Positions 1-15,633 of a DNA stretch of 64,000 nucleotides are shown here, piece by piece. The stretch spans positions 6,368-70,367 of the forward strand of contig JAHCRE010000006.1 of the NCBI GenBank assembly GCA_020148145.1. Reading direction: 5' to 3'. The first letter of the stretch is position 1, and each line of letters begins with the position of its first letter. Origin of the DNA: Patescibacteria group bacterium. Lineage in GTDB: Bacteria > Patescibacteriota > Minisyncoccia > Minisyncoccales > JAHCRE01. Under the pieces are notes generated by a model. That model made no database searches, was not told where the DNA came from, and worked only from the letters and a program-made list of their open reading frames with translations. The position numbers were made by a program, and so were the translations under genes.

Positions 1-1588
1 TAGCGCCGTTGTAAGTAACAGTGTAGCCCGATGAAGCATTTGTTGCAACAGTCATAGTATGAGCAGAGGTAGCAGTATCTGACCCGGTCGTATCTGTTGC
101 AAAACGAGCGTTGGCTGACACAAGAGTTCCAAAACCAATGCTCAAGTCTCCATCAATGGTAAAAGTTAAAGTTAGAGCAGCGGTCTTGATTGAAAGTTCA
201 GTGGCATTGGCTTTATGGCCGTAAGTATCGTAAGCCCAAATATTAAAGACATAATCTGTGTTAGCGGTAAGCCCAGAAACGGTTGTATTGGTGGTACTGT
301 TGTAGTCAATAAAGCCAAGATCTGCATCCGAATGCTCTGTATCACTTTCAGTAACGCCTGTAGTGCCTTGCTTGTAGTAAATGCGGTAGGTGCTAAAGTT
401 CGTTTCGGTCGTCTGGCTGCCAAAAGTTAAGGTAATACTGGAGGTCGTCTTGCCACCGTCGGTTAAATTTCCTGGCGCAGTTGGAGCAACATTATCAATA
501 GTTAGGGTTTGAGTAACTGGTGTGGTCTGGTCCACTGTATCGTCATTAACTGTCAGACGCAGACAATAAGTGCCGTTCCCGCTCGGCGCATCAGTAGCTG
601 AATTCCAATCAAATTGAACAGTGTTAGAGCCAGAAGAGGTGATAATTCTATAATCAGCCGTAGTCCCCACCTGATAAGTGTCAGCGTTAACTACTGAAGG
701 AGCCCCACCCGAATCATTAAAGTCTGCTGTTGCTCCTCCGGCTTCATCTAAAGTAGGGTCTAAGGGAGTAGCAAAATCACAAGTGCCATTAGCTACATAT
801 TCTATTTTGGCCTTAGTATCATCATCATTGGGGTCATCAACTTCAATAGAAATATCCACTGCCCCGGAACCATCGGTTTTTTGTGCTGCAGAATTAATAG
901 AGCCCGTTGGCGGGACGTTTGCTGGCGGCGTGTAGTATATCTCAATGGTTACATAGTCAACATCCACATCAGCATTATTCGCTGTAGCAAGAATACCAAT
1001 TGCTACACCAAAATTGGCATTCTTTACCCACGCAGCGTCCAGGGCATTGCCCCACAAATCTTCTGAAGTACCCTTGGTAATAATTGTTGTATCATCTTCG
1101 GTCAGCACTACGGGTGTAGCGCATTGATTCGTGCCGACTTTCGCTTTAGATGTATCAAGTAACTGAAGCAAATCCATTGAACCTGAACCCTGACCAGACC
1201 TATACCACGAATTAACGCGAACTATTACGCCGTTAATAGTAGAACCATCTAGAATTGCGCTGAAATCAAAGCCGGTTGCCTTCAAAACAGCTGTCTGGTC
1301 GCCGTTATCAAAATTCGCCGCAGTTACGTTTGCCGTAGCCCCATCATCAGCATAGATATTGGTAGGCGTATTCCAGCTATTATCACTCCAAGGTGATTCT
1401 TTTACCGACTCACCAAGAGTTGGATATACTTCTTCAGTAGTATCCGCCCGTGCTTCCGGAATTTCCGGCGGAATTGGTGGCTTTTTCCAAATCTGGGGCC
1501 AGCCAGAAAAAATCCAAACCGCCACCATTAAAAAGATAAGGCAAATCGCCAAAAAATTAGCTAAGGCATTTTTAATAATTTTAGCCAT
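1..1588 (-). CDS. Large secreted/cell-surface protein, 5' part only (runs off window start); signal-anchor plus fibronectin-III-like repeat
   Basis: Absent from ORF track because truncated. Own translation from ATG at 1588 gives MAKIIKNALANFLAICLIFLMVAVWIF... and stays open to base 1. FN3-like stretch APTAPGNL..SSITLTFG..YRIYYK..LTANTDYVFNIWAYDTYGH. Visibly more GC-rich than flanks. Confidence 0.75.
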   Translation of the reverse strand, partial: MAKIIKNALANFLAICLIFLMVAVWIFSGWPQIWKKPPIPPEIPEARADTTEEVYPTLGESVKESPWSDNSWNTPTNIYADDGATANVTAANFDNGDQTAVLKATGFDFSAILDGSTINGVIVRVNSWYRSGQGSGSMDLLQLLDTSKAKVGTNQCATPVVLTEDDTTIITKGTSEDLWGNALDAAWVKNANFGVAIGILATANNADVDVDYVTIEIYYTPPANVPPTGSINSAAQKTDGSGAVDISIEVDDPNDDDTKAKIEYVANGTCDFATPLDPTLDEAGGATADFNDSGGAPSVVNADTYQVGTTADYRIITSSGSNTVQFDWNSATDAPSGNGTYCLRLTVNDDTVDQTTPVTQTLTIDNVAPTAPGNLTDGGKTTSSITLTFGSQTTETNFSTYRIYYKQGTTGVTESDTEHSDADLGFIDYNSTTNTTVSGLTANTDYVFNIWAYDTYGHKANATELSIKTAALTLTFTIDGDLSIGFGTLVSANARFATDTTGSDTATSAHTMTVATNASSGYTVTYNGA

Positions 1589-1594
1589 TATTTT

Positions 1595-1603
1595 ATTTTA
1601 CCA
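1595..1603 (-). promoter_or_regulatory. Extended -10 box TGGTAAAAT, 6 nt upstream of the ATG (leaderless candidate)
   Basis: Minus strand reads TTTGGTAAAATAAAATAATG. Sits just after the terminator T-tract. Confidence 0.45.
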
Positions 1604-1624
1604 AATCAGAAACAAAAGCAAAGG

Positions 1625-1745
1625 CCCGAGAAAAACTCTCGGGTGGGGGCTTGCACTAAGCGTTGTCCAGGTGCTGCGGGGCCTGAACGCTGTTCGAACC
1701 TATTTTATGATACAAAACGGTATTTTGAGATACCAGTTTTGGCCA
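1625..1745 (-). repeat. Cassette-junction element copy A (family 1): terminator hairpin plus conserved 3' element
   Basis: Hairpin CCCGAGAG-TTTTT-CTCGGG at 1625-1643. Core GAACGCTGTTCGAACC at 1685-1700. About 80 nt alignable with copies at 6999-7110 and 11303-11415. Confidence 0.8.
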
Positions 1746-1774
1746 GTCCCTAATATACCCTATCCTCCTACTTA

Positions 1775-2053
1775 CTATTTCTTTCTTATTTTGATTGCTT
1801 TTCCATTGATTAAGGCTTCGGCTACTTTTTTACGAGCAGAAGTTAAAATTCGGCCTAAAGTGCTTTGAGAAATTTTCATTCTCTTAGCAGCTTTGATTTG
1901 GTTTAAACCTTTCAAATCACACAGTCTGATTGCTTCTAATTCATCTACGCCTAAATCAACTTCTTCTAACATAGAAAGAGGCACTGCCCTAGGCTTAAAA
2001 TATGTGACATTCGGATCAAACATGACCCTTCTTGGTTTTATTGGTCTTACCAT
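1775..2053 (-). CDS. DUF134/UPF0251-like small DNA-binding protein
   Basis: 92 aa. MVRPIKPRRV..FKPRAVP N-terminus and C-terminal HTH (MKISQSTLGRILTSARKKV), as I recall for DUF134. Last gene of the 4539-1775 operon. Confidence 0.65.
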   Translation of the reverse strand: MVRPIKPRRVMFDPNVTYFKPRAVPLSMLEEVDLGVDELEAIRLCDLKGLNQIKAAKRMKISQSTLGRILTSARKKVAEALINGKAIKIRKK

Positions 2054-2904
2054 AATTGATTGAGATTTTTAGAAATCTTTTTAATTTCTTTTTTAACTCT
2101 TAAATTGGTTTCTACGATTGGTTTTAAGTTGGCAATGGCTTTAAATATTTCCTTATCATAAGATATTTTGCCCAAAAATTTTTTGCCAGCCCACTTTTCT
2201 ATTTTATTGCTTAAACTTTTATAAATATCCCACTTATTAATTACTACACCATAAGGAATATTGAAATGATTAACTACTTTCAAAACTCTTTTTAAGTCAG
2301 TAAATCCAGAAGGAGTGGGTTCAGTAATCAGAATAGTAAAGTTTGCTCCCTGTAAAGAGGCAATCACTGGACAGCCGGTTCCAGGAGCGGAATCAATTAA
2401 CATTATTTCATAATTGAATTTTTCTGCTTCTTTTTTAATTTCGGTAACTACTTTACCAGACCCTGATTCTCCCGGATAAAGCTGACCAGAAATTAATGGA
2501 AAACCATATTTTGTTTTTTTAATTCTAATTTGGCCGTTTTGAACTGGTTTCAAAGAAATAGCTTTTTGGGGACAAATAACTTCACAAGCACCACAACCTT
2601 CACATAAAAATGGATTTAGTCGAGGTTTATCATTTACCATTTTTAATGCTTCAAATTTGCAATTTTTAACACAGAGGCTACAGCTATTGCATTTGTTTAA
2701 GTCAATCTCTGGCTTAGCCGAAGTAACCACTGGTAAAGTTTTATCCCATTTTTTTATTCCTCCTAACCAAATAGCTAAATTAGGGGCATCAACATCACAA
2801 TCTACAGCCGTAATCTTTTTCGATTTTCTAAAAAGCATTGCCAAAGCTGAAGTTAGCATCGATTTCCCTACTCCGCCTTTTCCAGAAGCTATAACTATTT
2901 TCAC
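2047..2904 (-). CDS. MinD/ParA-type P-loop ATPase with inserted 2x[4Fe-4S] ferredoxin motifs
   Basis: Deviant Walker A GKGGVGKS. CNSCSLCVKNC and CEGCGACEVICP cysteine clusters. Confidence 0.8.
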   Translation of the reverse strand: MKIVIASGKGGVGKSMLTSALAMLFRKSKKITAVDCDVDAPNLAIWLGGIKKWDKTLPVVTSAKPEIDLNKCNSCSLCVKNCKFEALKMVNDKPRLNPFLCEGCGACEVICPQKAISLKPVQNGQIRIKKTKYGFPLISGQLYPGESGSGKVVTEIKKEAEKFNYEIMLIDSAPGTGCPVIASLQGANFTILITEPTPSGFTDLKRVLKVVNHFNIPYGVVINKWDIYKSLSNKIEKWAGKKFLGKISYDKEIFKAIANLKPIVETNLRVKKEIKKISKNLNQLW

Positions 2905-2909
2905 ATTTC

Positions 2910-3740
2910 TTACAATTTTACTAATTCAAAATCGAGTAATTTCCCTTTTGAATAGGCCTCAACTAATTTTTTTGAATAAGGAATTTCTTTTTCTATTTTA
3001 ATTTTATATTTTTTGGCGATTTTTTGAATTTTCCTTTTATCTCCTAAATTAGCGTGATTCAAAATTATTTTGGCTGGCACCTTGAGTTTTTGGCATAAAT
3101 CCAAAATTAAATTCAAATCATAAGCTCCCATTGGAGTAGGTTCAGTAACAGCGTAAGCCAAATCACAACCCAAAAGAGCAGAAATTACTGGACAATGAGT
3201 ACCGGCAGCCGTATCAAATAAAAGAAAATCTGGCTTATTTTTCCTAACCAGATTTGAAACAAATTTTTTTGTTTTAGTAACTACAGGGCCTGTTTCCTCA
3301 AGGCCCGGTTTGGCAAGACCAGTTACTAGCCAATAGTCTTTCTCAATTTTATTTAAAAAGATTTGACCAATCTCTTCTTTTTTCGGCTGGATGGCTCCGT
3401 GTGGACAAACAATCCAGCAAGCTCCACAAGCTGAACATAGATCTTTAATAAATACTGGATATTTCTCTGGAGCTTGAAAAGCAGCATTATTTCGACAGAT
3501 TTCGACGCACAAACCACATTTTTTACATTTTCTTTTATTTAATTTTGGGAATTCAGCATAAACTTTCTTTTTGGATTTTTCTAATTTTTGACCCAATAAC
3601 AAATAATCATTAGGGCACTCCACATCACAATCACAAAGAATAACTTTCTTATCTTCTTTAATTAATTTATTAGCAAATAAGATAGTAATGGTACTTTTCC
3701 CAGTACCACCTTTGCCACCGGTAATAGCAATTTTTTGCAT
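2910..3740 (-). CDS. MinD/ParA-type P-loop ATPase with inserted 4Fe-4S motifs (paralog of 2047-2904)
   Basis: GGKGGTGKST Walker A. CKKCGLCVEIC and CSACGACWIVCP clusters. Confidence 0.8.
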   Translation of the reverse strand: MQKIAITGGKGGTGKSTITILFANKLIKEDKKVILCDCDVECPNDYLLLGQKLEKSKKKVYAEFPKLNKRKCKKCGLCVEICRNNAAFQAPEKYPVFIKDLCSACGACWIVCPHGAIQPKKEEIGQIFLNKIEKDYWLVTGLAKPGLEETGPVVTKTKKFVSNLVRKNKPDFLLFDTAAGTHCPVISALLGCDLAYAVTEPTPMGAYDLNLILDLCQKLKVPAKIILNHANLGDKRKIQKIAKKYKIKIEKEIPYSKKLVEAYSKGKLLDFELVKL

Positions 3741-3741
3741 G

Positions 3742-4071
3742 CTAAGTTGATTCTAATTCTCCTTTTTTAAATTTCTCCAAGGCCTCCTTGGCGGTTCCCG
3801 AAACCCCAGAAATTACTTTAATTCCCGATTGTTCTAGTACTGCTAAAGCATTAGGCCCAACATTGCCTACAATTACTACTTCTGCTTTTTCATTGGCAAC
3901 AGTCTGAGCAGCAGCAATTCCTGCTCCGCCCACTGCCTTTTTTGCTTCATTTTCTACTGTTTTAAATTCTTCGGTTTCCATATCTACAAATAAAAAATAA
4001 CTACATCTACCAAAAACTTGATCAATTGGAGAATCTAAATCAGGGCCAGTTGTACAAATACAAATTTTCAT
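3742..4071 (-). CDS. NifX/NifB-C-terminal-like (dinitrogenase FeMo-cofactor-binding fold) small protein
   Basis: 109 aa. MKICI...FGRCSYFLFVD...GAGIAAAQ..VIVGNVGPNA pattern typical of that family. Confidence 0.65.
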   Translation of the reverse strand: MKICICTTGPDLDSPIDQVFGRCSYFLFVDMETEEFKTVENEAKKAVGGAGIAAAQTVANEKAEVVIVGNVGPNALAVLEQSGIKVISGVSGTAKEALEKFKKGELEST

Positions 4072-4076
4072 AAATT

Positions 4077-4289
4077 TTATTTAGCCCTAGTCATTGAAGT
4101 GCCACATTTTGGGCATTTATAAGTATAACAAGGTGTCCCTCTTCCGTGAGGAACTTTGGTCCCACAATTCGGACAGATACATTCTCCCCCGGGTCCTAAA
4201 CCAAAACCACCAGGTTGTCGACCCCGACCACCTCTTCCGGGCGCTCTAAATCTCCCACCAGGAGGAATTGAAGGAATTCTCTTTGGCAT
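4077..4289 (-). CDS. Gly/Arg-rich zinc-ribbon protein
   Basis: 70 aa. GRGGRGRQPGGFGLGPGG followed by CPNCG...CPKCG. Confidence 0.55.
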   Translation of the reverse strand: MPKRIPSIPPGGRFRAPGRGGRGRQPGGFGLGPGGECICPNCGTKVPHGRGTPCYTYKCPKCGTSMTRAK

Positions 4290-4290
4290 G

Positions 4291-4539
4291 TTATTTTTTT
4301 CCTTTTTTAGTTTCTAACTCTCTTAATCTTTCTTCAATGGCTTTCATTTCCTCTCGTAAGGCCTTAAGCTCTTCCAAAAGCATCTCTTTTTCTTCTTTCG
4401 GAGTAGGCTCTTGCCAATTCTCAGGATAAGCCCACCACCAACGAGGAAGCCAAGGAAATCTAAAACATCTTCCCCCATATCTTCTTAAATCTCTTTGATT
4501 GTAAGCCCACCAAGGACCACCACCATAACCAAAAGGCAT
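4291..4539 (-). CDS. DUF5320-like protein (Trp/Arg-rich N-terminus, C-terminal coiled coil)
   Basis: 82 aa. Ends EEKEMLLEELKALREEMKAIEERLRELE. First gene of the operon. Confidence 0.5.
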   Translation of the reverse strand: MPFGYGGGPWWAYNQRDLRRYGGRCFRFPWLPRWWWAYPENWQEPTPKEEKEMLLEELKALREEMKAIEERLRELETKKGKK

Positions 4540-4588
4540 AATATTATAATCTATTAATTGCTATTACTTTTTCGACCTTTCTATTATG

Positions 4589-4617
4589 ATTATAAACCCA
4601 TAACTATGTCTTGTCAA
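4589..4617 (-). promoter_or_regulatory. Sigma70-type promoter TTGACA-17-TATAAT for the 4539-1775 operon
   Basis: Minus strand reads CCTTGACAAGACATAGTTATGGGTTTATAATC. Confidence 0.55.
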
Positions 4618-4635
4618 GGTTTATTTATCCACAAT

Positions 4636-4672
4636 TAAAAAAAATCGCTAAGGGGATTTTTCCGGTAGCGAT
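4636..4672 (-). terminator. Rho-independent terminator after 4727-5227
   Basis: ATCGCTA...TAGCGAT stem followed by T8 on the minus strand. Confidence 0.5.
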
Positions 4673-4726
4673 TTGTAACGAATACTTGCGAAAGAACAAT
4701 TTTATCCACTGTTGGACGAGAGGCAC

Positions 4727-5227
4727 TTATTTTATTCTTGCTGTCTGTTCCCTGATTATATTCATTACTTCTTCTGGTTTTTCAGTTGAAAAAACAAACT
4801 CTTTAAATCTACCTTTCTTCAATAAAAGCACAACTCGAGGAGCTCCTATAACATTATACACTAATCTCCATTTTCCCTTAACTCTTCCTATGCGTATGCC
4901 CCAACCTCCATATCTAATTATTGAGGCTTCGTCTAAATAACAATTCTTAATATTCTCCCAGGTGATGATGTGCCTAAAAATCCCATAACTGACCTTGACA
5001 GACAGATGAGTTATTCTAATGCTTAGCCTACTAAAATTAATCGTCACGCCTAAAAACAATAGAAACATAAGTAGGAAAAACCAGTTTGAAGCGGGACGAG
5101 TACCAACTGGTCCTACCAAAATTTGATAGACCAATACAAAAAGAAATCCAGCTGTAAAAGCGGTCAATATACTCGTCATCCACCACTTCGAGGATATCTT
5201 TTCTTCGTAGAGGTTACTTCTCTGCAT
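4727..5227 (-). CDS. Membrane protein, two TM helices plus small C-terminal soluble domain
   Basis: 166 aa ORF. Hydrophobic segments ILTAFTAGFLFVLVYQIL and WFFLLMFLLFLGV. Confidence 0.55.
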   Translation of the reverse strand: MQRSNLYEEKISSKWWMTSILTAFTAGFLFVLVYQILVGPVGTRPASNWFFLLMFLLFLGVTINFSRLSIRITHLSVKVSYGIFRHIITWENIKNCYLDEASIIRYGGWGIRIGRVKGKWRLVYNVIGAPRVVLLLKKGRFKEFVFSTEKPEEVMNIIREQTARIK

Positions 5228-5254
5228 TTTTTTTACCTAAACAATAAAAAAACT

Positions 5255-5479
5255 CTAAAAGAAAGCATACAATACAGCCATTGCCAGCGTGATAAATAGA
5301 GTCATACCAATCCAAAGTTTAGCACCAACTCTCCTTGTTATGTATCCAATATAAAGAAACACTGGAATTAAATATAAGGGCACCACATTCAGCGGTTTGT
5401 ATATTACATTCTTAAAAATTATTATCAATCCTATCATGAGAGCAGCTGTAACTATTGCTGTTTTTGTTTCATCTTTCAT
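5255..5479 (-). CDS. Small integral membrane protein
   Basis: 74 aa, three hydrophobic helices. Co-oriented just upstream of 4727-5227. Confidence 0.45.
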   Translation of the reverse strand: MKDETKTAIVTAALMIGLIIIFKNVIYKPLNVVPLYLIPVFLYIGYITRRVGAKLWIGMTLFITLAMAVLYAFF

Positions 5480-5522
5480 GTTTTTTGGTTGCTTATAAAT
5501 TATTTTATATAACCTTTAAAAC

Positions 5523-7892: not shown

Positions 7893-7894
7893 GC

Positions 7895-10268: not shown

Positions 10269-10416
10269 TTCTAAACCTCCTTATCTCTTACTGATAAAGA
10301 TTATATAACTTTTTATCAAAAAAATCAACTCCTAGGGGGCAGGAGGAGCAAGTTAGAGGATTTGTCGATGCTCCCCTGGTGGACGATGTAAGAACCTGTC
10401 TGGTGGAATCTCAGAA

Positions 10417-10734
10417 CTAATCTGCACAAAGCATTTCTTCTGGGCGTTCGGGATCCCAGAAATAACAACCAGTCCATCTTCCTGAACAGAACCAGTTCTT
10501 TCCATCTTTAGAGATGCAACGCTCATCTTCAGGACAATCGGTGTGTAAGCTACAAGGTTTCTGTGAGTCTGGAGCACAATAAGGACCAGAGAGAGAACCA
10601 AATTTTTTGTATCCTTCGGGACACCGCAAAAGTTTGTAGCGGATTGGTATAAAAAAGGGGGAATTATAGATGAACCATCCACCGATTATAATTATTCCAA
10701 CTATTAAAATGACAATTAAGGTTTTTGTGGTCAT
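10417..10734 (-). CDS. Small secreted/membrane-anchored Cys-rich protein
   Basis: 105 aa. N-terminal TM helix LIVILIVGIIIIGGWFIY, then 8 Cys. Confidence 0.55.
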   Translation of the reverse strand: MTTKTLIVILIVGIIIIGGWFIYNSPFFIPIRYKLLRCPEGYKKFGSLSGPYCAPDSQKPCSLHTDCPEDERCISKDGKNWFCSGRWTGCYFWDPERPEEMLCAD

Positions 10735-10772: not shown

Positions 10773-10915
10773 CCCCGAGAAAAACTCTCGAGGGCGGGCG
10801 GAAATAAAAAAGCTCCCCCTATTGGACGCATTCAGAACTGTCAATTGGAAAAGAATTAGAGAGGAATTGGAAGAATTAGGGCTTAGTTTAGGGATTCAAT
10901 TAGCTCCTGTAAAGA
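10773..10915 (-). repeat. Cassette-junction element copy F (family 2-like)
   Basis: Hairpin CTCGAGAGTTTTTCTCGGGG at 10773-10792. Core GGACGCATTCAGAACT at 10824-10839. Confidence 0.7.
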
Positions 10916-10916
10916 T

Positions 10917-11195
10917 TTAAATAAAAAAATTCGGGCGGTCAGTTTTCTGAAACGCCCTTTGAATTTGGTTAAGTAAGTCCTGGAGTCTCCTTGGGGGTTC
11001 TTTTGTTTCTTTAATCCTTTTTAATGCTGGAATCCAAATGAAATTTCCACCGCAAAATCTGCAACTCGGGTCGTTTCCTTCCTTAATCTTTTTGAATCCA
11101 TACTGGCTTGCTGTATGGCCTGTTTTTCCTTCTACTACAATCCCCTCGCATTCAAACTCTGCACCGCAACCTTTACATCTGTATCTCTCGCTCAT
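10917..11195 (-). CDS. Small zinc-ribbon protein
   Basis: 92 aa. CKGCG...CRFCG. Confidence 0.5.
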   Translation of the reverse strand: MSERYRCKGCGAEFECEGIVVEGKTGHTASQYGFKKIKEGNDPSCRFCGGNFIWIPALKRIKETKEPPRRLQDLLNQIQRAFQKTDRPNFFI

Positions 11196-11238
11196 TCTTC
11201 CACTTCCTTTTATATTTTATAGAAAGAACTGTCTTTAA

Positions 11239-11268
11239 ATTATACTATTATTATTTCAAGCTCGTCAA
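11239..11268 (-). promoter_or_regulatory. Sigma70-type promoter TTGACG-18-TATAAT
   Basis: Minus strand reads CTTGACGAGCTTGAAATAATAATAGTATAATTT. Confidence 0.5.
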
Positions 11269-11302
11269 GATTTTAACAGGGTCTGCCCGACATAATCAAA
11301 AA

Positions 11303-11415
11303 CCCCGAGAAAAACTCTCGGGCGGTGCCATGCTGCGGGGCCTGAACGCTATTAGAACCTATTGGCAGTGGACAATGGAATACTCTGCGATACCAGTCTT
11401 TAATAAAATATAAAG
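11303..11415 (-). repeat. Cassette-junction element copy C (family 1)
   Basis: Hairpin at 11303-11322. Core GAACGCTATTAGAACC at 11344-11359. Confidence 0.8.
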
Positions 11416-11430
11416 GAAAACTGTTGTCAA

Positions 11431-12381
11431 CTAACTAAGCATCTTAGTGTTTTGGGTTATATTAAAATCATTTAATTTTTTTGTAACTTCTTTAAGATCT
11501 ATTTTTCTGGAAACATAAGGAAAACGTACTACATTTTTGGTGTACTCTTCTTCAAAGCCAACTTTAAATAGGACTTGGCTCTGTTTTTTATCTTTATATT
11601 TGCAGAGCCCTGTTAATACAGATATTAAGTTGGAATAATCAGGAACATAAATTCGATTACCAAAAGCTCGTTGGAGATCCTTTGTTACAAAAATGCCATT
11701 TATACTAACTTTAAAAGCATTATTATCTATCATAAACTTGCCTGTTTTTATTGCAACTTCTATTACCTCCTCTCGTTTCATGTCTAAACCGCCTAGCATT
11801 ATATATCCGTTCCACTCAATATTTAGTTTATTTAAAATATCTACCGCTTGCTGAATTTGTTGTGTGTCGTTCCCTTTTTTATGTTTTTTTAATAATTCAT
11901 CATCAAAAAATTCTATTCCTAATCTTATTCTCAATTTTTTTGTCTCTAAATGAGATTTTATAGTTTTAAGTTTTTCTTGGAAACGAATTACATCATCTAC
12001 TCTTGCCTCGATTTCATACGCCTTACATTTTTGATGAAGGGCAATATACTTTGGGATATCTATTAAAATAGTTGGTTGATACATCTCTTCCTCCCTCAAG
12101 ATATTCCCGCCGTTATATAAAACTAGTGAATTCGGAGAATACTTGGTTATATACTTTTTAATTTTAGCTAATACTTCATTACCAAATTCTTCATTGATTT
12201 TTAAATTCTTATTACGCTCTTCCTGAACACCGCAAAATAAACATCGGGGAGTCTTCGTGCATCCTGTATAAGGAATAGTTACATAAAGAACTTTCTCTTT
12301 GCCTAATTTAATTAAAGTAACCTCATAACGCCCTGATTTTCCTTGTTCTTCTATTTTGATATTTGATTCTTTAGAATCCAT
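11431..12381 (-). CDS. Radical-SAM-like TIM-barrel protein with variant Cys motif (Cx5Cx2C)
   Basis: 316 aa. GCTKTPRCLFCG, then LYNGGNIL and RIRLGIEFFDDELLKKHKKG..IMLGG resemble radical SAM core strands. Assignment is tentative. Confidence 0.45.
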   Translation of the reverse strand: MDSKESNIKIEEQGKSGRYEVTLIKLGKEKVLYVTIPYTGCTKTPRCLFCGVQEERNKNLKINEEFGNEVLAKIKKYITKYSPNSLVLYNGGNILREEEMYQPTILIDIPKYIALHQKCKAYEIEARVDDVIRFQEKLKTIKSHLETKKLRIRLGIEFFDDELLKKHKKGNDTQQIQQAVDILNKLNIEWNGYIMLGGLDMKREEVIEVAIKTGKFMIDNNAFKVSINGIFVTKDLQRAFGNRIYVPDYSNLISVLTGLCKYKDKKQSQVLFKVGFEEEYTKNVVRFPYVSRKIDLKEVTKKLNDFNITQNTKMLS

Positions 12382-12388
12382 ATTCTCA

Positions 12389-12397
12389 ATTCTACCA
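12389..12397 (-). promoter_or_regulatory. Extended -10 TGGTAGAAT, 7 nt upstream of the ATG (leaderless candidate)
   Basis: Minus strand reads GGGCGGTTTTTTGGTAGAATTGAGAATATG. Confidence 0.45.
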
Positions 12398-12403
12398 AAA
12401 AAC

Positions 12404-12480
12404 CGCCCTCTTGGCGATTTTTAATGCCGCTCGGTCGCTCGAACCGAGCACTAGCCTGCTCCGCGATTTAAACAATTACA
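12404..12480 (-). repeat. Cassette-junction element copy I (family 2 fragment; type-2 hairpin)
   Basis: CGCC-AAGAG-GGCG plus T6 at 12404-12416. GGAGCAGGCTAGTGCTCGG aligns with CCGAGCAGGCTTGTGAGC of copy D. Confidence 0.55.
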
Positions 12481-12810
12481 AACTTTCTCTATTATCCTAC
12501 CAAATCTTATCCATCAGTGTAGGAAACGGGACTTAAAAAACTAAAAACCTTACCCCTAACTATATATACTTTTACTATTATTTTCTTTTACTCTTTGGTG
12601 GGCTCGGTCGCTCGCTATTGCTCGCTCCCTCGCCCCTATTTTATATTCAAAAAATGAGTTTTTGAAGGTAAAAAATCCTCTAAGACCCCTCTTTTGCAAA
12701 AATTAAAAGTTGACGTTGACTCGACATTCGAGTGTCGAGTTTTTATCAAAAGTTGTCGTTCACTTGTCGTTCTAGAACGACAAGTTTTTGAATCTAATAA
12801 TTTTTAAAGA
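12481..12810 (-). other. ORF-less unit bracketed by a junction promoter and terminator; palindromes, iterated TTGTCGTTC and GTTGAC motifs
   Basis: No ORF of 60 aa or more on either strand. 22-nt perfect palindrome at 12763-12784. Hairpin at 12720-12739. GTTGACGTTGAC at 12709-12720. GC-rich tract at 12598-12637. Confidence 0.5.
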
Positions 12811-12819
12811 ATTCTCCCA
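12811..12819 (-). promoter_or_regulatory. Extended -10 TGGGAGAAT fused to a terminator T-tract
   Basis: Minus strand reads GGCGATTTTTTGGGAGAATTC. Confidence 0.4.
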
Positions 12820-12823
12820 AAAA

Positions 12824-12910
12824 ATCGCCCCTTTGGCGATTAGTTAGCTCCGGGGATGGTACAATATTAGAACTTGGTTTTGGGATAATTTTCCAATAAT
12901 AGGCCCATTA
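12824..12910 (-). repeat. Cassette-junction element copy H (divergent; type-2 hairpin)
   Basis: ATCGCC-AAAGG-GGCGAT plus T6 at 12824-12840. Core GGTACAATATTAGAACT at 12858-12874. Confidence 0.6.
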
Positions 12911-12914
12911 TATC

Positions 12915-13709
12915 TTAAAGTACCTTGTTATCTCGAATAAATTTAAGTTGTTTTGTCCAATCCATTAGATTGCCTTCTACCCTACTAAGATCCCGATCTG
13001 ACAATGGATTATGATGGGCAATAATACGTCTTGATGGTATAGTTTCATCTAGTTTCGATAATAACCATTCGGTTTTTCTCCTTTGATTTTTCAAATACTT
13101 ATTAAAAATTCTATTATGGCTCTTCAAAATTAAAATTAAATCTCCAAAATCAGAATAATATATTGGATGATCGCCCCTTTTACCGTGCCAGGCTCTTCGC
13201 TTTTCTTCTTTCATTCGCTCTTTTACTCTAGTCATGATTTCAGAAAGTTTTTTGGTATTCATTTTTGTCGGCCACCAATCTGAACCAAATTCTTTTTCTA
13301 AGACTTTATTTATAAAATTTCTAATAGAATTTTCAAAAATATAAAGTACAAGATATGCTTTTCCTGCCATTTTTACTGCGTCTTTTTTCACCGAATTTGG
13401 CAACAAAGGTTCATTGATTATACCAAATTGGGTCTTAATTGGCCTCGACACAGAGGATCTAGCCTTATAGTATAGTCTTCTTTTTTTCTCAGATTGAGAA
13501 ACTTGAATTGCACTAGCTATTTTACTCTGTTCTTTTAGGGAAAGTTTCTTAAGTTCCCTTGAATAGCCCACATTATTTTCTGCAGCCAGAATAAAAATAG
13601 CCTCTTTTGAAGTAAGACCAAGAGGTCTTCCTCTTTGCCAAATTCTTTTCTTTAGAGCGACCACTGTGGAAGATCTAAGTTTTTTTTGAAGACGTTCAAG
13701 AAGAGTCAT
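12915..13709 (-). CDS. Swt1-like HEPN domain protein (predicted RNase)
   Basis: 264 aa. C-terminal half FENSIRNFINKVLEKEFGSDWW...YSDFGDLILIL...SRRIIAHHNPL fits the HEPN Rx4-6H motif and the Swt1-type layout as I recall it. Confidence 0.6.
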   Translation of the reverse strand: MTLLERLQKKLRSSTVVALKKRIWQRGRPLGLTSKEAIFILAAENNVGYSRELKKLSLKEQSKIASAIQVSQSEKKRRLYYKARSSVSRPIKTQFGIINEPLLPNSVKKDAVKMAGKAYLVLYIFENSIRNFINKVLEKEFGSDWWPTKMNTKKLSEIMTRVKERMKEEKRRAWHGKRGDHPIYYSDFGDLILILKSHNRIFNKYLKNQRRKTEWLLSKLDETIPSRRIIAHHNPLSDRDLSRVEGNLMDWTKQLKFIRDNKVL

Positions 13710-13885
13710 GACTTCTTTTTCTTTTTTATTTCCTTAATTGGAACAATTTGCTGAACTCTTCTCTTGCTAATCTCTAAAATCTCTGCAATATCCTTTGATT
13801 CAGCCCCGTTCAACATTGCATTCAAAATTAGAAGCCTTTTAATCGCTTCCAGTGGTTTTAGTGATTGTTTCCTTTTCTTAGCCAT
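13706..13885 (-). CDS. Small HTH protein (59 aa; below ORF-track cutoff)
   Basis: Own translation: MAKKRKQSLKPLEAIKRLLILNAMLNGAESKDIAEILEISKRRVQQIVPIKEIKKKKKS. Its stop overlaps the next gene's start (ATGA). Confidence 0.55.
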   Translation of the reverse strand: MAKKRKQSLKPLEAIKRLLILNAMLNGAESKDIAEILEISKRRVQQIVPIKEIKKKKKS

Positions 13886-13892
13886 ATTGTTT

Positions 13893-14066
13893 TTATTTCT
13901 TTTTCAAATGTTTGGCAATTTTATTCACCATGTTAATATCTGTGCCAACTATCTTCCGTATCTTACGTTGGGTCATACCAGCTCTGCTAAGCTCAACAAT
14001 CAAAAGCTTCTTCAGTAAATCTATAATCTCCTCTGTTTCAGATTTTTTTTCCTGTTTTTTATTCAT
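13893..14066 (-). CDS. Small HTH protein
   Basis: MNKKQEKK...LSRAGMTQRKIRKIVGTDINMVNKI. Start chosen at the internal ATG (14066), directly after the upstream stop. The track ORF starts at 14096. Confidence 0.5.
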   Translation of the reverse strand: MNKKQEKKSETEEIIDLLKKLLIVELSRAGMTQRKIRKIVGTDINMVNKIAKHLKKK

Positions 14067-14067
14067 T

Positions 14068-14304
14068 TTACTTCTTCTTTCTTCTTTTGTTATCATAAAG
14101 TAAATGTGATACTTGTGTATTAGTTTTCCCTAGCAATCGTGCAATTTCTTGGTTTTTAAAACCTAATTGTCTCAATTGACTAGCTAAACTAGCCAAAGTC
14201 ATTTTTGATCTTTTTTCTTCACTTTGGGTAAGAGAGGTTAGTAAAAAGTTAATTATCACATCTAATCTCTTTATGATGTCTTGTGTGTTTTTGTTCGAAG
14301 GCAT
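14068..14304 (-). CDS. Small HTH protein
   Basis: 78 aa. LRQLGFKNQEIARLLGKTNTQVSHLL helix-turn-helix. Confidence 0.55.
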   Translation of the reverse strand: MPSNKNTQDIIKRLDVIINFLLTSLTQSEEKRSKMTLASLASQLRQLGFKNQEIARLLGKTNTQVSHLLYDNKRRKKK

Positions 14305-14317
14305 ATTGCTTTGTTGT

Positions 14318-14617
14318 TTAAATCAATTTAAAAAAATATTTTTTGCCTTTTCTGGTTTCACTTGTGATAAAACCTAACTCAGAGAGTGTTGTTAAGTGGT
14401 GGGTAACTGTTGGCTGTTTGACCCTGAGGATTTTAGCAATTTCAGTAACACCTTTTTTGCCATCACATAAATTATAGACTTTTTTTCTAGGCCCACTAGC
14501 TAATGCTTTCTCTTTAGCAGCTTCTATTTGATCAGCGTGTGTTAGCTTATAGAGAGAGAGGACTTGGTTAAGAACAGACTTTAAAGCTATTATTTCTTTT
14601 ATAAATTCTTCGTTCAT
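14318..14617 (-). CDS. Winged-helix (ArsR/MarR-like) transcriptional regulator
   Basis: 99 aa. GVTEIAKILRVKQPTVTHHLTTLSELGFI. Confidence 0.6.
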   Translation of the reverse strand: MNEEFIKEIIALKSVLNQVLSLYKLTHADQIEAAKEKALASGPRKKVYNLCDGKKGVTEIAKILRVKQPTVTHHLTTLSELGFITSETRKGKKYFFKLI

Positions 14618-14666
14618 TTATATCTTTTTTCTATAAGTTTAATTTTTAACATTGTCGACCATATAT

Positions 14667-14695
14667 AGTTTAGCTGATATAGAAATTGTTGTCAA
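14667..14695 (-). promoter_or_regulatory. Sigma70-type promoter TTGACA-17-TAAACT for the 14617-12915 operon
   Basis: Minus strand reads CTTGACAACAATTTCTATATCAGCTAAACTATA. Confidence 0.5.
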
Positions 14696-14736
14696 GAACC
14701 AGAACATAATACTCACACAGGGCTCGAATCGAGAAA

Positions 14737-14860
14737 ATAAAAAATTGCCCAGCGAATGGGCTTTTTGTTTTTAAATCTCTTGGTCTCTTGATAAAAAATT
14801 TGGTTACGGAACATCGTGGACAATGTTAGAACTGTGTTTAGAGAATTAGATGAATTATGT
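14737..14860 (-). repeat. Cassette-junction element copy J (divergent) with bidirectional terminator
   Basis: GCCCA-GCGAA-TGGGC at 14747-14761, flanked by A and T runs. Core GGACAATGTTAGAACT at 14818-14833. Confidence 0.6.
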
Positions 14861-15469
14861 TTATATACCCAACTTAAAGGTCTCAAGCACATCCACTCTA
14901 TGACCATCGGGCGGTAATCCACCTTTAATTATATTGATTTGACTGACAAGCATTTTCCCAAACGAAATTTCTTGGTAGTTTTTCTTGATGGTTTCAAATA
15001 ATTCAGTAGGCTCTTCGTAGAAATAAATTACTGCAACGTGGGGCATATAATTATTTCCCTCAAATTCGGGATACTCGCTAAAAGGAATTGCATTGTTTAA
15101 TCGCTTATGTAACTCAAAGAGTTTGTCGTCAGGAGAAAAAACCTGCACAAATATATTATTGGGAAATTGACTAAATCCTTTAAGTTCTACCTCAAATGGT
15201 TGAAATCCAACCAATGCTTCTTTAGTTTTTTTAATAACATCTGGTATTACAGATTCTTGAATCTGTTTTCTCAACAAACCACAGGATTTAACAGTGCAGT
15301 GATACATATCCTGAGGTACATAATCTTGATTCGGAAATTTTTCTCTCAGAAGTTGGGCAATTTCACTGATTTTCTCTTTTAAAGGAGGTGAAATCCAAAA
15401 ATTAAGAGATAAATCATTGAATTCTGGAATAGGATTATTCTTATTTCTTAGAAATATCTTATTTTTCAT
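14861..15469 (-). CDS. 2H phosphoesterase superfamily protein (LigT / 2'-5' RNA ligase-like)
   Basis: 202 aa. Two H-x-T/A-type motifs (YHCTVK and PHVAVIYF) with appropriate spacing. Confidence 0.55.
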   Translation of the reverse strand: MKNKIFLRNKNNPIPEFNDLSLNFWISPPLKEKISEIAQLLREKFPNQDYVPQDMYHCTVKSCGLLRKQIQESVIPDVIKKTKEALVGFQPFEVELKGFSQFPNNIFVQVFSPDDKLFELHKRLNNAIPFSEYPEFEGNNYMPHVAVIYFYEEPTELFETIKKNYQEISFGKMLVSQINIIKGGLPPDGHRVDVLETFKLGI

Positions 15470-15490
15470 AAAATTTCTTAAGTCGTCTTC

Positions 15491-15499
15491 ATTCTATCA
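15491..15499 (-). promoter_or_regulatory. Extended -10 TGATAGAAT
   Basis: Minus strand reads GCGGTTTTTTGATAGAATGAAG. Confidence 0.45.
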
Positions 15500-15513
15500 A
15501 AAAACCGCAAAAA

Positions 15514-15533
15514 GTTCTAACCGTCCACGACGG
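15514..15533 (-). terminator. Hairpin CCGTC-GTG-GACGG after tRNA-Gln; contains an inverted copy of the junction core
   Basis: Plus strand GTTCTAACCGTCCAC (15514-15528) equals the reverse of the core seen elsewhere on the plus strand as GTGGACGCTGTTAGAAC. Confidence 0.5.
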
Positions 15534-15562
15534 GTAGCTAATTTTGAGTTAAAAATTGAGTG

Positions 15563-15633
15563 CTGGAGGGGTAGGATTCGAACCTACATTACGGGTTCCA
15601 GAGACCCGCTGCCTACCGTTAGCAGACCCTCCA
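15563..15633 (-). tRNA. tRNA-Gln (anticodon CUG)
   Basis: Hand-folded cloverleaf. Acceptor stem UGGAGGG/CCCUCCA with U1:A72, anticodon loop CUCUGGA, T arm GUAGG-UUCGAAU-CCUAC, G73. CCA not encoded. Confidence 0.85.

Follow-up and report, generated by a model that had tools for sequence, protein, structure and literature searches.

Putative serine-integrase scars in a tRNA-flanked island of a Patescibacteria group bacterium

Serine integrases and integrons are described systems with which the locus considered here can be compared. Canonical serine integrases recombine attP with attB only, and integration destroys attB. Serine-integrase half-sites differ in the position of a zinc-ribbon-domain motif, which is shifted by 5 bp between attP and attB, and attR-type sites are inert unless a directionality factor is present and do not recombine with attB (PMC3783163). 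Integrons have IntI, attI, and attC as their features. The window analyzed here, a 64-kb stretch of DNA from a Patescibacteria group bacterium, carries at positions 1-15633 about 14 co-oriented transcription units with recurrent modules between them. We consider it likely (probability roughly 0.72) that a flexible genomic island occupies the region 3′ of tRNA-Gln(ctg) and derives from large serine recombinase (LSR) elements with tRNA-Asn and tRNA-Gln 3′ ends as their targets.

Layout of the island and its junctions

A sequence-only reading had described recurrent modules between short minus-strand units in 1-15633, and this held, with its hairpin coordinates confirmed to within 1-2 nt (Table 1). 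Its gene calls were broadly right (fn3; DUF134, two MinD/Fer4, NifX-like, Zn ribbon, and DUF5320; S1/P1-like; radical SAM; HEPN_Swt1; 2H/LigT). The cargo had been called mostly single orphan genes plus one six-gene operon, which held only in part, as there is also a five-gene unit (four small HTH genes and HEPN), a two-gene unit, and a gene-less unit. The all-minus orientation is true but unremarkable, since 58 of the 59 ORFs of at least 120 aa across the whole 64 kb lie on the minus strand. The stretches 1-1588, 7241-7735, and 10053-10734 had been called GC-richer, and they are, at 0.447, 0.457, and, for 10053-10268 and 10417-10734, 0.481 and 0.406, against 0.348 in the core (sd 0.036, 500-nt windows). 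Unit 13 is 81% identical to L044, where it has other neighbours. Unit 3 is 75% identical to L004 170-515, in which a 217-aa open reading frame begins where conservation stops; it has no match in Rfam and, as an inference from sequence alone, resembles an orphan regulatory leader.

The type-1 hairpin CCCGAGAGTTTTTCTCGGGG occurs at 1624, 6999, 9954, 10773, and 11303 (all minus strand, at most 2 mismatches; chance expectation 0.01), with a decayed copy at 8641-8660, and the type-2 hairpin at 5538, 12404, and 12826 (chance expectation 0.1). The claimed repetition of -10 boxes also held, with TGGTAGAAT present three times (12397, 6988, and 5531) and TGGTAAAAT (1603), TGATAGAAT (15499), and TGGGAGAAT (near 12815) once each. 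Promoter-like sites overall show no excess (52 vs 47.7 in shuffles), and terminator-like sites a modest one (21 vs 12.1, sd 4.3). The view of hairpins and -10 boxes as the key punctuation needs correction, as neither is a recombination site. The hairpins are the usual tRNA-trailer terminators of this clade, found in relatives directly behind genuine tRNA-His, -Gln, and -Gly, and the -10 boxes are ordinary promoters. A hairpin that proved to be a generic terminator had been named as grounds for rejecting the cassette idea; it is generic in the clade, yet neither type was found in the window's 48-kb core part (16-64 kb). The conserved 80-130 nt 3′ element claimed for nearly every unit held in part, being not one element but five subfamilies (A-E) with a common 27-nt core, and a recognisable scar is absent at junctions 9954, 4650, and 14750.

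Table 1. Features of the island in window coordinates, listed from the tRNA toward the window edge
Feature	Positions	Strand	Description
tRNA-Gln(ctg)	15562-15633	-	island anchor; 3′ end and trailer resemble an unoccupied attB (B/B′)
tRNA-Gln(ctg) trailer	15470-15561	-	hairpin CCGTCGTGGACGG, T-runs, then -10 TGATAGAAT serving unit 1
Unit 1	14861-15469	-	2H/LigT-like phosphoesterase
Divergent box	14747-14832	-	GTTCTAACATTGTCC, without GAGC end, then terminator GCCCATTCGCTGGGC and T-run
Unit 2	12915-14617	-	ArsR-type HTH, three small HTH-like ORFs, HEPN_Swt1 protein
attR scar, subfamily E	12826-12900	-	box 12859-12873; ..CCCCGGAGC to 12847; type-2 hairpin 12826-12840, then TGGGAGAAT
Unit 3	12440-12800	-	no gene; two palindromes, promoter-like site, GC-rich stem
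Real tRNA-Asn 3′ end remnant and trailer	12404-12465	-	CGCGGAGC/AGGCTAGTGCTCGG..; type-2 hairpin 12404-12418, then TGGTAGAAT; comparator, L018 tRNA-Asn trailer
Unit 4	11431-12381	-	radical SAM protein
attR scar, subfamily A (tRNA-Gln(ttg)-type)	11303-11413	-	box 11344-11358; ..GGCCCCGCAGC to 11332; type-1 hairpin 11303-11322
Unit 5	10917-11195	-	Zn-ribbon protein, 92 aa
attR scar, subfamily C	10773-10920	-	opposite-strand LSR tail LPLLDAFRTVNWKRIREELEELGLSLGIQLAPVKI and stop; box 10824-10838; ..GGGGGAGC to 10812; type-1 hairpin 10773-10792
Unit 6	10417-10734	-	Cys-rich membrane-anchored protein, 105 aa, GC 0.406
attR scar, subfamily D	10329-10395	-	box 10381-10395; then ..CCAGGGGAGC; different terminator 10329-10345
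Unit 7	10053-10268	-	Cys-rich protein, 71 aa, GC 0.481
Box-less junction	9953-10015	-	gene's own terminator 9998-10015; type-1 hairpin 9953-9973
Unit 8	8801-9913	-	370 aa; weak AMIN-like domain match, 22.6 bits, below Pfam cutoff of 27
attR scar, subfamily B	8641-8779	-	opposite-strand LSR tail LGLADDFRALRWGKVFKYPEVLLKQTRELLEFTPKT and stop; box 8680-8694; ..GACCGAGC to 8668; decayed type-1 hairpin 8641-8660
Unit 9	8101-8619	-	coiled-coil membrane protein, 172 aa
Truncated D-type box (~8068-8085) abutting B-type attR scar	7935-8090	-	tail LGLLDDFRTLRWEDVFKYPEVVLGQMRELCKRC and stop; box 7992-8006; ..GTCCGAGC to 7980; then tRNA-Asn-type trailer hairpin (AGGCTTGTGAGC..)
Unit 10	7241-7735	-	membrane protein, 164 aa, GC 0.457; 12/12 consensus promoter at 7863-7892
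A-type 3′ element, ~180 nt	6999-7215	-	box 7047-7061; ..CCCGCAG to 7036; type-1 hairpin 6999-7018, then TGGTAGAAT; 82% identity to L050 3313-3518
Unit 11	5685-6932	-	S1/P1-nuclease-like protein, 415 aa; match under Pfam cutoff
Degenerate scar	5538-5620	-	AGGTTCTAAC 5611-5620; ..GCGGAGC to 5559; type-2 hairpin 5538-5552, then TGGTAGAAT
Unit 12	4727-5553	-	horizontally exchanged cassette: hairpin, promoter, two membrane genes
Unit 13	1775-4539	-	six-gene operon: DUF5320, Zn ribbon, NifX-like, two MinD/Fer4 ATPases, DUF134
attR scar, subfamily A	1624-1753	-	box 1685-1699; ..GGCCCCGCAGC to 1673; type-1 hairpin 1624-1643, then TGGTAAAAT
Unit 14	2-1588	-	fn3-containing surface protein, GC 0.447; extends past window edge; 630 aa in L001

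The box, the integrase tail, and att sites in relatives

The 27-nt core of the 3′ element, hereafter the box, reads GGTTCTAAC-ATCGTCC-N8-GAGC or -GCAG(C), like the 3′ end of tRNA-Asn or tRNA-Gln yet exactly 5 bp longer. It is a real, island-specific feature, with nine minus-strand copies in 1-16 kb at no more than one mismatch. A consensus of AAAnAGGTTCTAAnATCGTCC-N7-GGAGC emerges from 57 copies in many Patescibacteria loci, and the information content drops to zero directly past GGAGC. In L075 and L094, foreign DNA abuts the ..GAGC/CAGC box end directly. No consensus RNA structure was found for the box-containing element. The strand opposite the 3′ element encodes the final ~36 codons of an LSR family, and this tail identity is shown. 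In seven B copies of 32 codons each, the opposite-strand frame across the box contains no stops, compared with 16-29 stops in four of the remaining frames and 2 in the fifth, and its pN/pS is 0.59-0.67. An exhaustive profile search with the tail returned 305 cluster representatives, with the tail domain at or near the C-terminus in every one that had listed match coordinates; the longer matches are LSR C-terminal parts ending in ..SRxxW/LAGWDDFRT..YPEL.L.Q...LL and a stop (here and below, the slash marks the junction). The IMG/VR contig L084 encodes a full 518-aa LSR, where the box lies inside the 3′ end of the gene in a different reading frame, so it is as a DNA site that the box is conserved.

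The att-site logic is likewise shown, as all four site types are found in relatives and can be aligned. attP lies within an intact LSR 3′ end (L096 and L094), attB at free tRNAs (L018, L061, L063, and L050), and attL at the fusion of an LSR body with tRNA-Asn (L099) or tRNA-Gln(ctg) (L097), the P′ sequences of the two being related (CAAT..AGACG..). In L099, tRNA-Asn(gtt) and the LSR 3′ end overlap, and in L097 the LSR gene runs antisense into tRNA-Gln(ctg), the orthologue of the window's anchor. attR consists of the box joined to a tRNA trailer and terminator, which is the junction module of the window, as at 8006 (..GTCCGAGC/AGGCTTGTGAGC..; compare ..GGAGC/AGGCTAGTGAGG.. at the tRNA-Asn of L018). 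GGTTC lies 28 nt from the junction in attP and attR vs 23 nt in real tRNAs of both the Asn and Gln types. Most P0222 homologues lack the tail and end in ..W/LPxxDSNxEP, which is what a real tRNA 3′ end encodes when read antisense. An obvious conserved motif is absent from the right half-sites, P′ and B′. The LSR beside tRNA-Gln in L065 is tail-less, lies 800 nt from the tRNA, and shares only ~30% identity with the tail-bearing family.

Strain variation and assembly of the array

Strains differ at this locus, and the point of divergence is exactly the tRNA. L063 and L065 share 99.36% identity over 10,991 nt up to the final base of tRNA-Gln(ctg), directly past which their content is unrelated, and no homologue of the window cargo occurs downstream of this tRNA in either of these sampled relatives. 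One cassette has been horizontally exchanged: window 4741-5553 is 93.7% identical to L011 1513-2324, placed elsewhere in CR_Bin_053, whereas core genes of the two genomes are 67-75% identical. This block begins exactly at the type-2 hairpin, excluding the upstream box, and its right edge falls within a gene, not at a site. The strain variability at the tRNA, the cassette in CR_Bin_053, and the attR scars are three independent lines that support the earlier proposal of cassette acquisition or shuffling rather than ordinary operon evolution.

In the mechanism we propose, attP lies within the final ~40 codons of its own integrase gene. Its left half-site P is the box, resembling the T-loop and acceptor 3′ strand of a tRNA, the host half-site B, with the distal GGTTC motif 5 bp farther from the crossover in P than in B. 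On integration, the tRNA would be joined to the integrase body, which creates attL. At the other end of the insert, attR would combine the severed integrase tail, the previously noted 3′ element that codes in the opposite direction, with the trailer and intrinsic terminator that had belonged to the tRNA. Every recurrent module would then be an attR scar with the promoter of the next and older unit behind it, which would explain why near-identical punctuation surrounds unrelated cargo.

Growth of the array by repeated integration beside the tRNA and subsequent loss of the integrase side is possible, but it is inferred and not shown. The earlier view of an array anchored by tRNA-Gln(ctg) needs one correction: the scars mimic the ends of tRNA-Asn and tRNA-Gln(ttg), not that of the anchor, and the anchor's 3′ end has no further copy in the island; simple serial integration at tRNA-Gln(ctg) therefore cannot explain the array. 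Since only attP and attB recombine and attB is destroyed, multi-scar arrays need extra steps that have not been demonstrated. attB may have been regenerated along the way, plausibly via homologous recombination through the repeated terminator-promoter modules, and cassettes with scars of other tRNAs may have arrived as captured cargo or through inter-module recombination. The window holds tails only, with no LSR gene or LSR-body remnant, and the reported lack of an integrase or recombinase held for the ORFs tested; the implicated LSR is found only in relatives, and none recurs in 110 ORFs around their arrays.

Alternative explanations and known systems

One alternative is that the junctions are clade-standard terminator-promoter regions after stand-alone genes, alike through descent, selection, or gene conversion and with no role in acquisition. 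Both hairpin types do occur on many contigs of related MAGs, CR_Bin_053 has ~17 type-1 matches on 8 contigs, some right behind real tRNAs, and the L063 junctions have type-2 hairpins and -10 boxes mostly without a box. The core also has one T-run fused to TGNTAAAAT (41325), and co-orientation is general in the window anyway. For the hairpins and -10 boxes taken by themselves, this account holds. As a full explanation it is unlikely, and for the box-containing part largely refuted, because it leaves unexplained the pseudo-tRNA ends exactly 5 bp longer than real ones, the LSR-tail coding, the complete set of att sites, the abrupt loss of conservation past GAGC, the cassette of 94% identity between genomes with ~70% identical cores, and the strain breakpoint at the tRNA end.

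We also regard as improbable an integron-like system, in which a trans-acting serine integrase would actively shuffle self-expressed cassettes with box/trailer sites, excising them and re-inserting them at a tRNA-proximal site. In its favor are the small co-oriented units closed by the same kind of site, the mixed scar types in one island, and the same cassette in differing contexts. In L050, moreover, the native trailer and hairpin stand behind a real tRNA-Gln(ttg) and recur 1.15 kb downstream behind an A-box, as would be expected had a unit with a P/B′-type site entered B/B′ and regenerated both. Against it, attR-type sites would be inert and unable to recombine with attB under the serine-integrase rules given above (PMC3783163), no circular cassette or integrase was seen near arrays, and no attC-like R″/R′ inverted repeats or folding were found.

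Least likely of all is a MITE/REP-like origin, with the ~60-180-nt module a non-autonomous element landing downstream of resident genes and bringing a terminator and promoter: the module is short, dispersed, multi-copy, and orientation-specific in many genomes, with tandem or nested boxes (window 8068-8085 and 7992-8006; L015 7650/7571; L045 6388/6321), but terminal inverted repeats and target-site duplications are absent, box subfamilies combine freely with trailer and hairpin types across a breakpoint within the module directly past GAGC, the tail is accounted for as a piece of an integrase gene, and the ~94% block starts at the hairpin without the upstream box, so the moving unit is hairpin-promoter-gene(s) and not box-hairpin.

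On the serine-integrase reading, the region is not a normal stretch of operons but a patchwork island in which a candidate-phyla-radiation bacterium has gathered acquired genes. Compared with integrons, it lacks an IntI-type tyrosine recombinase, attI, and attC, and its cassettes carry their own promoters. Compared with published serine integrases, the offset between box and tRNA matches their 5-bp shift of the zinc-ribbon motif between attP and attB (PMC3783163).

The island 3′ of tRNA-Gln(ctg)

The window is a bacterial chromosome segment with a GC content of 35%. Besides six tRNA genes and the gene for RNase P RNA, it contains housekeeping genes typical of Patescibacteria/CPR (MreB, RpoA, SecY, MurA, FtsEX and others), and its FtsX is identical to a protein labelled 'Patescibacteria group bacterium' by NCBI. 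The minus strand holds 58 of the 59 ORFs of at least 120 aa in the whole 64 kb, and therefore the co-orientation of the island genes, stressed by an earlier sequence-only reading, is true but is a genome-wide property. Read from the tRNA on the minus strand, the island falls into about 14 units, of which nine are single genes. The others are a 2-gene unit, a 5-gene unit (HEPN_Swt1 with four small HTH genes), a 6-gene operon (DUF134/MinD/NifX-like), a gene-less unit (12440-12800), and an fn3 protein unit that extends past the window edge. The other elements of that reading fared well. Its gene labels are supported by Pfam; the tRNA, the -10 boxes, the GC-rich cargo, and both families of hairpin occur at the places it gave, far above chance; and neither hairpin type occurs in the core (16-64 kb), as it had claimed. 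The GC-rich cargo reaches 0.41-0.48 against 0.348, which is compatible with a foreign origin, and the units carry their own strong promoters; those at 7863-7892 and 4589-4617, for example, match the consensus at 12/12 positions. A separate assembly (L001) matches window 1-4805 with 100% identity and contributes only further surface-protein genes over 2.7 kb past the window start. No tyrosine recombinase was found in the tested window ORFs or in these 2.7 kb, and no recombinase of any kind among the tested window ORFs or in the annotation of locus L059, so the statement that no integrase or recombinase is visible held for the ORFs tested. Around arrays in relatives, no transposase family recurs and no recombinase family is matched by two or more of 110 ORFs; families matched by a single ORF were not listed, and a lone recombinase is not excluded.

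The 3′ end of tRNA-Gln(ctg) is an integration hotspot. Synteny upstream of the island is kept in relatives whose FtsX is about 70% identical (TraG-like, PGK, DHH, RNase H, MurJ, DivIC, PrfB, FtsE, FtsX), and the tRNA itself is found in two of their loci, L063 and L065, while two other assemblies end right after FtsX. L063 and L065 share 99.36% identity over 10,991 nt, ending at the last base of tRNA-Gln(ctg), and are unrelated beyond it. Past the tRNA, L063 contains small co-oriented genes with type-2 hairpins and TGNTAGAAT between them; L065 contains an element with another large serine recombinase (LSR), a Type ISP restriction enzyme, and a Shedu-like gene. No homologues of the window cargo lie downstream of the tRNA in these two relatives. 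Distant genomes have exchanged at least one cassette: window 4741-5553, which holds a type-2 hairpin, a promoter, and two membrane genes, is 93.7% identical to positions 1513-2324 of a contig of CR_Bin_053 (L011), a genome whose core genes are 67-75% identical to those of the window genome. This identity starts exactly at the hairpin, and the neighbours of the shared cassette differ. The sequence-only reading had interpreted the island as cassette acquisition; cross-strain comparison, with content varying from a breakpoint exactly at the tRNA 3′ end, was carried out, the interpretation is supported, and a mechanism is now supplied.

A number of features lie beside these results. The L065 element (11071-20906, directly 3′ of the tRNA) carries genes for the 441-aa recombinase, for a MerR/HTH_17 protein, for SduA_C (Shedu), and for a Type ISP restriction-modification enzyme of 1015 aa, and is a defence island at the same hotspot. 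In the gene-less unit (minus strand), the near-perfect palindromes ACTTGTCGTTCTAGAACGACAAGT and ACTCGACACTCGAATGTCGAGT both lead into (G/C)AACG(A/T)CAACTTTT; a promoter-like TTGCAA..TATAAAAT comes next, and then a GC-rich stem. The unit has no Rfam match. Positions 170-515 of L004, from a Paceibacterales MAG, align to it at 75% identity, the changes within the palindromes being compensatory, and a 217-aa open reading frame of L004 begins where the conserved region ends; the unit looks like an orphaned operator/leader region or an sRNA. A promoter-leader module (TTGACA-N18-TATAAT, then ..ATAGTTCTTTGA(A/T)AAAA..GGGGAA(G)GAG ahead of the start codon) precedes unrelated cargo genes in two genomes, at window 7800-7892 and 11200-11268 (minus) and at ~4395-4490 and ~3790-3850 of the related contig L050. 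In the core, the sole plus-strand ORF of at least 120 aa (42842-44272; 476 aa, without a Pfam match) sits in the lowest-GC kilobase of the window (0.27), beside a Cas4/PD-(D/E)XK-like gene (44330-45034), and may be another foreign insertion. The RNase P RNA (class A, 127 bits; 22811-23178, plus) is on the strand opposite to nearly all genes, and a TrwB/TraG-like coupling-protein gene with a zinc finger (26283-27896, minus) belongs to the core gene order that is conserved upstream of FtsEX in every relative examined, including L063, L065 and a third locus, L067.

The junction module and the integrase tail

The sequence-only reading had placed its emphasis on the hairpin; the informative part is instead the '3′ element' before it. 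A 15-nt box, GTTCTAAnnnnGTCC, precedes most hairpins, with nine copies (at most one mismatch), none on the plus strand and none outside 1-16 kb, and GAGC or GCAG(C) comes 7-8 nt after it. The consensus of 57 copies from the window and related MAGs is AAAnAGGTTCTAAnATCGTCC-N7-GGAGC, directly past which conservation falls to zero. Subfamilies A-E of the box are distinguished by the 60-100 nt upstream of it, and trailer types and both hairpin types are found past GAGC in free combination with the subfamilies; therefore a recombination junction, inferred from these sequences, follows GAGC immediately.

The stretch running from box to hairpin resembles a tRNA 3′ end plus its trailer. The type-1 hairpin is a dispersed repeat in a Patescibacteria MAG clade (CR_Bin_053, CR_Bin_039, Modern_marine.mb.304, CSMAG_1234 and others in a genome-collection scan), often directly 3′ of real tRNAs, including tRNA-His (contigs L021 and L056), tRNA-Gln(ttg) (L050), and tRNA-Gly (L022), and relatives also have window-like arrays in the order ORF-box-hairpin-ORF. 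A-type boxes end in ..GGCCCCGCAG, the acceptor end of tRNA-Gln(ttg), and in L050 an A-type box and the real tRNA 1.15 kb upstream share the trailer and hairpin that follow. Boxes of types B-E end in the tRNA-Asn-like ..GGAGC, with the tRNA-Asn trailer AGGCTAGTG.. continuing at several sites (window 8006 and 12458, L017, L021, and L037). The Rfam tRNA model does not recognise the boxes.

The opposite strand encodes the end of a protein. The antisense frame across the box reads L-x-x-x-D-D-[FV]-R-T..., stays open for about 30-36 codons, and stops at a conserved place. In subfamily B, 7 copies of 32 codons contain no stop in this frame; of the five other frames, four have 16-29 stops and the fifth has 2. 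The pN/pS is 0.59. A word-indexed profile search returned just 43 short ORFs with this C-terminal segment behind unrelated N-termini, while an exhaustive HMMER search of 1.84 billion representatives found 305 matches, including longer proteins. The upstream part of these longer proteins is the C-terminal region of an LSR (zinc ribbon ..YVYYHCTQY.., coiled coil, ..EKRxLL..), and they end in ..SRxxW/LAGWDDFRTxxWxxxxEYPELxLxQxxxLL and a stop. One of them, P0222, has only a weak Zn_ribbon_recom match (E=0.0023, under the Pfam cutoff); its homologues P0292 and P0300 have Recombinase and Zn_ribbon_recom. The window copies match LSR tails directly (tblastn E~5e-4) and via the profile, and relatives encode Resolvase + Recombinase + Zn_ribbon_recom proteins, of which the window has none. 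An IMG/VR contig (L084) encodes a full 518-aa LSR (Resolvase, Recombinase, and Zn ribbon) whose 3′ end includes the box, read there in another frame, and the box is therefore conserved as DNA.

The search of IMG/VR gave 23 box matches, mostly chance, of which only L084 and L075 were informative, and two hairpin matches. In L075 (UViG_3300009529_003397, 14690-14819), AT-rich CPR-like DNA runs up to a D-type box, ..GTCCAGTTCCCGGAGC, and GC-rich DNA (>52%) begins immediately after it, which could be either an integration junction or an assembly chimera. A further observation comes from JGI contig Ga0373626_0033906 (L094), in which a 79-aa ORF (P0034; 1487-1726, plus) has the LSR tail as its last 34 residues, while its first 32 align with a phage small terminase at its N-terminal end (phrog_83, E=4e-6), such that the box-containing right end is joined in frame to a truncated terS-like gene. 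A relationship of the module to TerS was considered and set aside, and the likeness of the hairpin's antisense 'NPEKNSR' to 'GNPGKRP' was judged coincidental.

Other identities for the module were considered and rejected. An independent small protein is ruled out, with N-termini and starts that vary and database matches that all share only the C-terminal 36 aa, which favours a severed LSR tail. Boxes as displaced genuine tRNA 3′ ends are likewise ruled out, as all share the same 5-bp excess over the real T-loop-to-3′-end segment. A fragment of an SSV-like tyrosine integrase found no long match in the word-indexed search, and the exhaustive search gave serine recombinases. For an integron, there is no IntI tyrosine recombinase among the ORFs tested, no attC-like fold or Rfam match in the box region, and the units have their own promoters; by eye only, without a formal test, no symmetry or hairpin pairs matching attC, dif/Xer, or IS200/IS605-like ends were seen. 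A MITE/REP-like dispersed repeat is also rejected, with no TIR or TSD seen at the module ends and the breakpoint inside the module. A structured RNA fails, with no Rfam match at gathering or E<=5, no consensus fold, and an alifold energy of about 0 on both strands.

Attachment sites and the 5-bp shift

Most homologues of P0222 lack the tail and end instead in ..SRQxW/LPxxDSNxEP.., where DSN corresponds to a genuine T-loop (GGTTCGAATCC) translated from the opposite strand. The recombinase ORF overlaps tRNA-Asn(gtt) in antisense in contig L099, and in L097 it overlaps, also antisense, tRNA-Gln(ctg), the same tRNA species as the window anchor. Aligned in tRNA orientation, the four site types are reciprocal hybrids with the common core GAGC/GCAG(C), and we therefore place attP inside the 3′ end of the integrase gene. 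In this arrangement, integration at a tRNA 3′ end likely severs the last ~36 codons of the integrase, although recombination is inferred from sequence alone.

Attachment sites in tRNA orientation (a slash marks the joint between half-sites)
Site type	Composition	Location	Sequence
attP		L096	..GTTCTGAAATCGTCCCACCCTGCGAGC/CAATTTAGACG..
attP		L094	
attB	B/B′	free tRNA-Asn and tRNA-Gln in L018, L061, L063, L050	
attL	tRNA/P′ + LSR body	L099	..GGTTCGAATCCACGCGGGGGAGC/CAATCAAGACG..
attL	tRNA/P′ + LSR body	L097	
attR	P/B′	window 8006, 8694, 10838, 10395, 12873, 11358, 7061, 1699	

GGTTC and the junction are 28 nt apart in attP and attR boxes, compared with 23 nt in the real tRNAs for Asn and Gln. In serine integrases, the motif bound by the zinc-ribbon domain lies 5 bp farther from the centre in attP than in attB half-sites (Rutherford et al., PMC3783163), and the box/tRNA spacing fits this published shift exactly. 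The comparison covers the left half-site only, and the analysis was not designed around the agreement. On this sequence evidence the window modules are attR-type scars of a tRNA-targeting LSR family, with the recombination itself inferred. In composition, each '3′ element + terminator' is an attR made of a P half-site, carrying the integrase tail, and the original tRNA trailer and terminator; that the enzyme performed the joining is again an inference.

Partial tRNAs also occur elsewhere. At window ~30290-30337 (minus), just 3′ of tRNA-Asp (30338-30414), AGATTTGGTAGGGGAGAGTTGCGAGTTCGAGTCTCGCCGTCCCCGCA is a partial tRNA with a perfect T-arm and acceptor 3′ strand and no 5′ half, and a similar half-tRNA, 'ATTTGGTAGG..T-arm..GGAGC', follows tRNA-Val at ~11700-11746 of contig L062. 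These may be att remnants or a half-tRNA feature of the core region.

Formation of the array and relation to known systems

The mechanism by which a multi-scar, integrase-less array arises can only be inferred. Our best guess is repeated integration next to a tRNA, followed by loss of the integrase/P′ side. The attB site would be regenerated through homologous recombination between the highly repeated terminator-promoter modules, and scar-bearing cassettes may also arrive as cargo when elements excise with a distal attR. The arrangement in L050, tRNA/B′-hairpin..cargo..P/B′-hairpin, is exactly the product expected from attB regeneration.

An actively shuffling integron-like system is unlikely but not excluded, and conflicts with the known site selectivity of serine integrases. 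Simple serial integration at the anchor is opposed by the restriction of canonical serine integrases to attP x attB, which destroys attB, and by the window scars themselves, which mimic tRNA-Asn and tRNA-Gln(ttg) with 5 bp in excess, with no second copy of the tRNA-Gln(ctg) 3′ end anywhere in the window.

A bolder reading, possible but not likely as one joint claim, combines a self-embedded attP switch with scars that are still recombinogenic into a serine-recombinase analogue of the integron. Here, a CPR serine-integrase family would carry attP in its own 3′ coding end and be full-length only on the excised circle, the integrated enzyme losing (exchanging) its ~36-residue C-terminal tail. This would create an integration-state-dependent switch of integrase form, with a putative consequence for directionality or stability. 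The P/B′ scars, each with a terminator and beside a promoter, may remain recombinogenic; if so, islands would capture and reshuffle self-expressed cassettes as integrons do.

Little is understood of how candidate-phyla-radiation bacteria (Patescibacteria), with their tiny genomes, acquire genes. Returning to the attR reading, this locus and its relatives offer a concrete route, in which serine integrases act at the 3′ ends of tRNA-Asn and tRNA-Gln genes, and the attR scars left behind, with their terminators, come to punctuate an island whose acquired genes are each presumably expressed individually. They also supply natural attP/attB pairs for a new LSR clade, and a signature for mapping islands and past integrations in metagenomes: GGTTCTAAC-ATCGTCC-N8-GAGC, a tRNA 3′-end mimic that is 5 bp too long.

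A shallow literature search turned up no report of a tRNA-targeting serine integrase whose attP lies in the 3′ end of its own gene. A search on Patescibacteria islands gave nothing relevant. The closest system is attP x attB integration by LSRs (Listeria phage A118/LI integrase, Bxb1, phiC31), with which the relatives share three-domain recombinases, four hybrid site types with a short common core, and a distal half-site motif shifted exactly 5 bp between attP- and attB-type sites (PMC3783163). Well-known serine integrases mostly target protein-coding genes. Here, in contrast, the targets are tRNA gene 3′ ends, attP lies inside the 3′ coding end of the integrase such that integration removes its last ~36 residues, and the window keeps only attR scars, many per array, without the integrase.

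Archaeal SSV-type tyrosine integrase genes are split by their own attP, and mycobacteriophage repressors are truncated upon integration; to our knowledge, no serine integrase gene is known to be cut by its own reaction. SSV-type partition in archaeal viruses and plasmids, reportedly described by She et al. ('gene capture in archaeal chromosomes'), is alike in that an attP within the integrase ORF mimics the 3′ part of a tRNA, integration splits the gene, and fragments overlapping the tRNA-like sequence persist as borders of captured DNA and accumulate by tRNAs. Those tyrosine recombinases are split near the N-terminus, whereas here a serine recombinase of CPR bacteria loses only a short C-terminal tail. 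In the integration-dependent immunity of mycobacteriophages, reported to be the subject of Broussard et al. (2013), attP also lies in the 3′ end of a phage gene and integration into a tRNA gene alters the C-terminus of a protein, but it is a repressor that is split, by a tyrosine integrase; here it is the integrase itself, and any functional consequence is putative.

At the level of the island, the flexible, tRNA-anchored islands of Prochlorococcus are shaped by tycheposons and contain scattered partial tRNAs (bioRxiv 10.1101/2020.12.28.424599). Like the present island, they lie beside a tRNA, newer insertions displace older ones distally, partial-tRNA att remnants and recombinase-less cargo are scattered, and content differs between strains. 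They differ in using tyrosine recombinases and true duplicate partial tRNAs, where we find P-type half-sites 5 bp longer than the tRNA end, and the window units are tiny (0.3-3 kb), each with its own promoter and terminator. Integron arrays share the co-oriented, mostly single-gene, unrelated units and a recurrent spacer derived from a recombination site, but the window has no IntI, attI, or attC structure, its cassettes carry promoters and terminators, and its sites trace back to the attP of a serine integrase and to sequence flanking tRNAs. Taken together, with a probability of about 0.7 for the explanation as a whole, the mechanism is likely serine-integrase site-specific integration, and the island likely a tRNA-anchored flexible island in CPR bacteria. 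The unusual feature, as inferred from sequence in relatives, is an integrase gene split by its own reaction.
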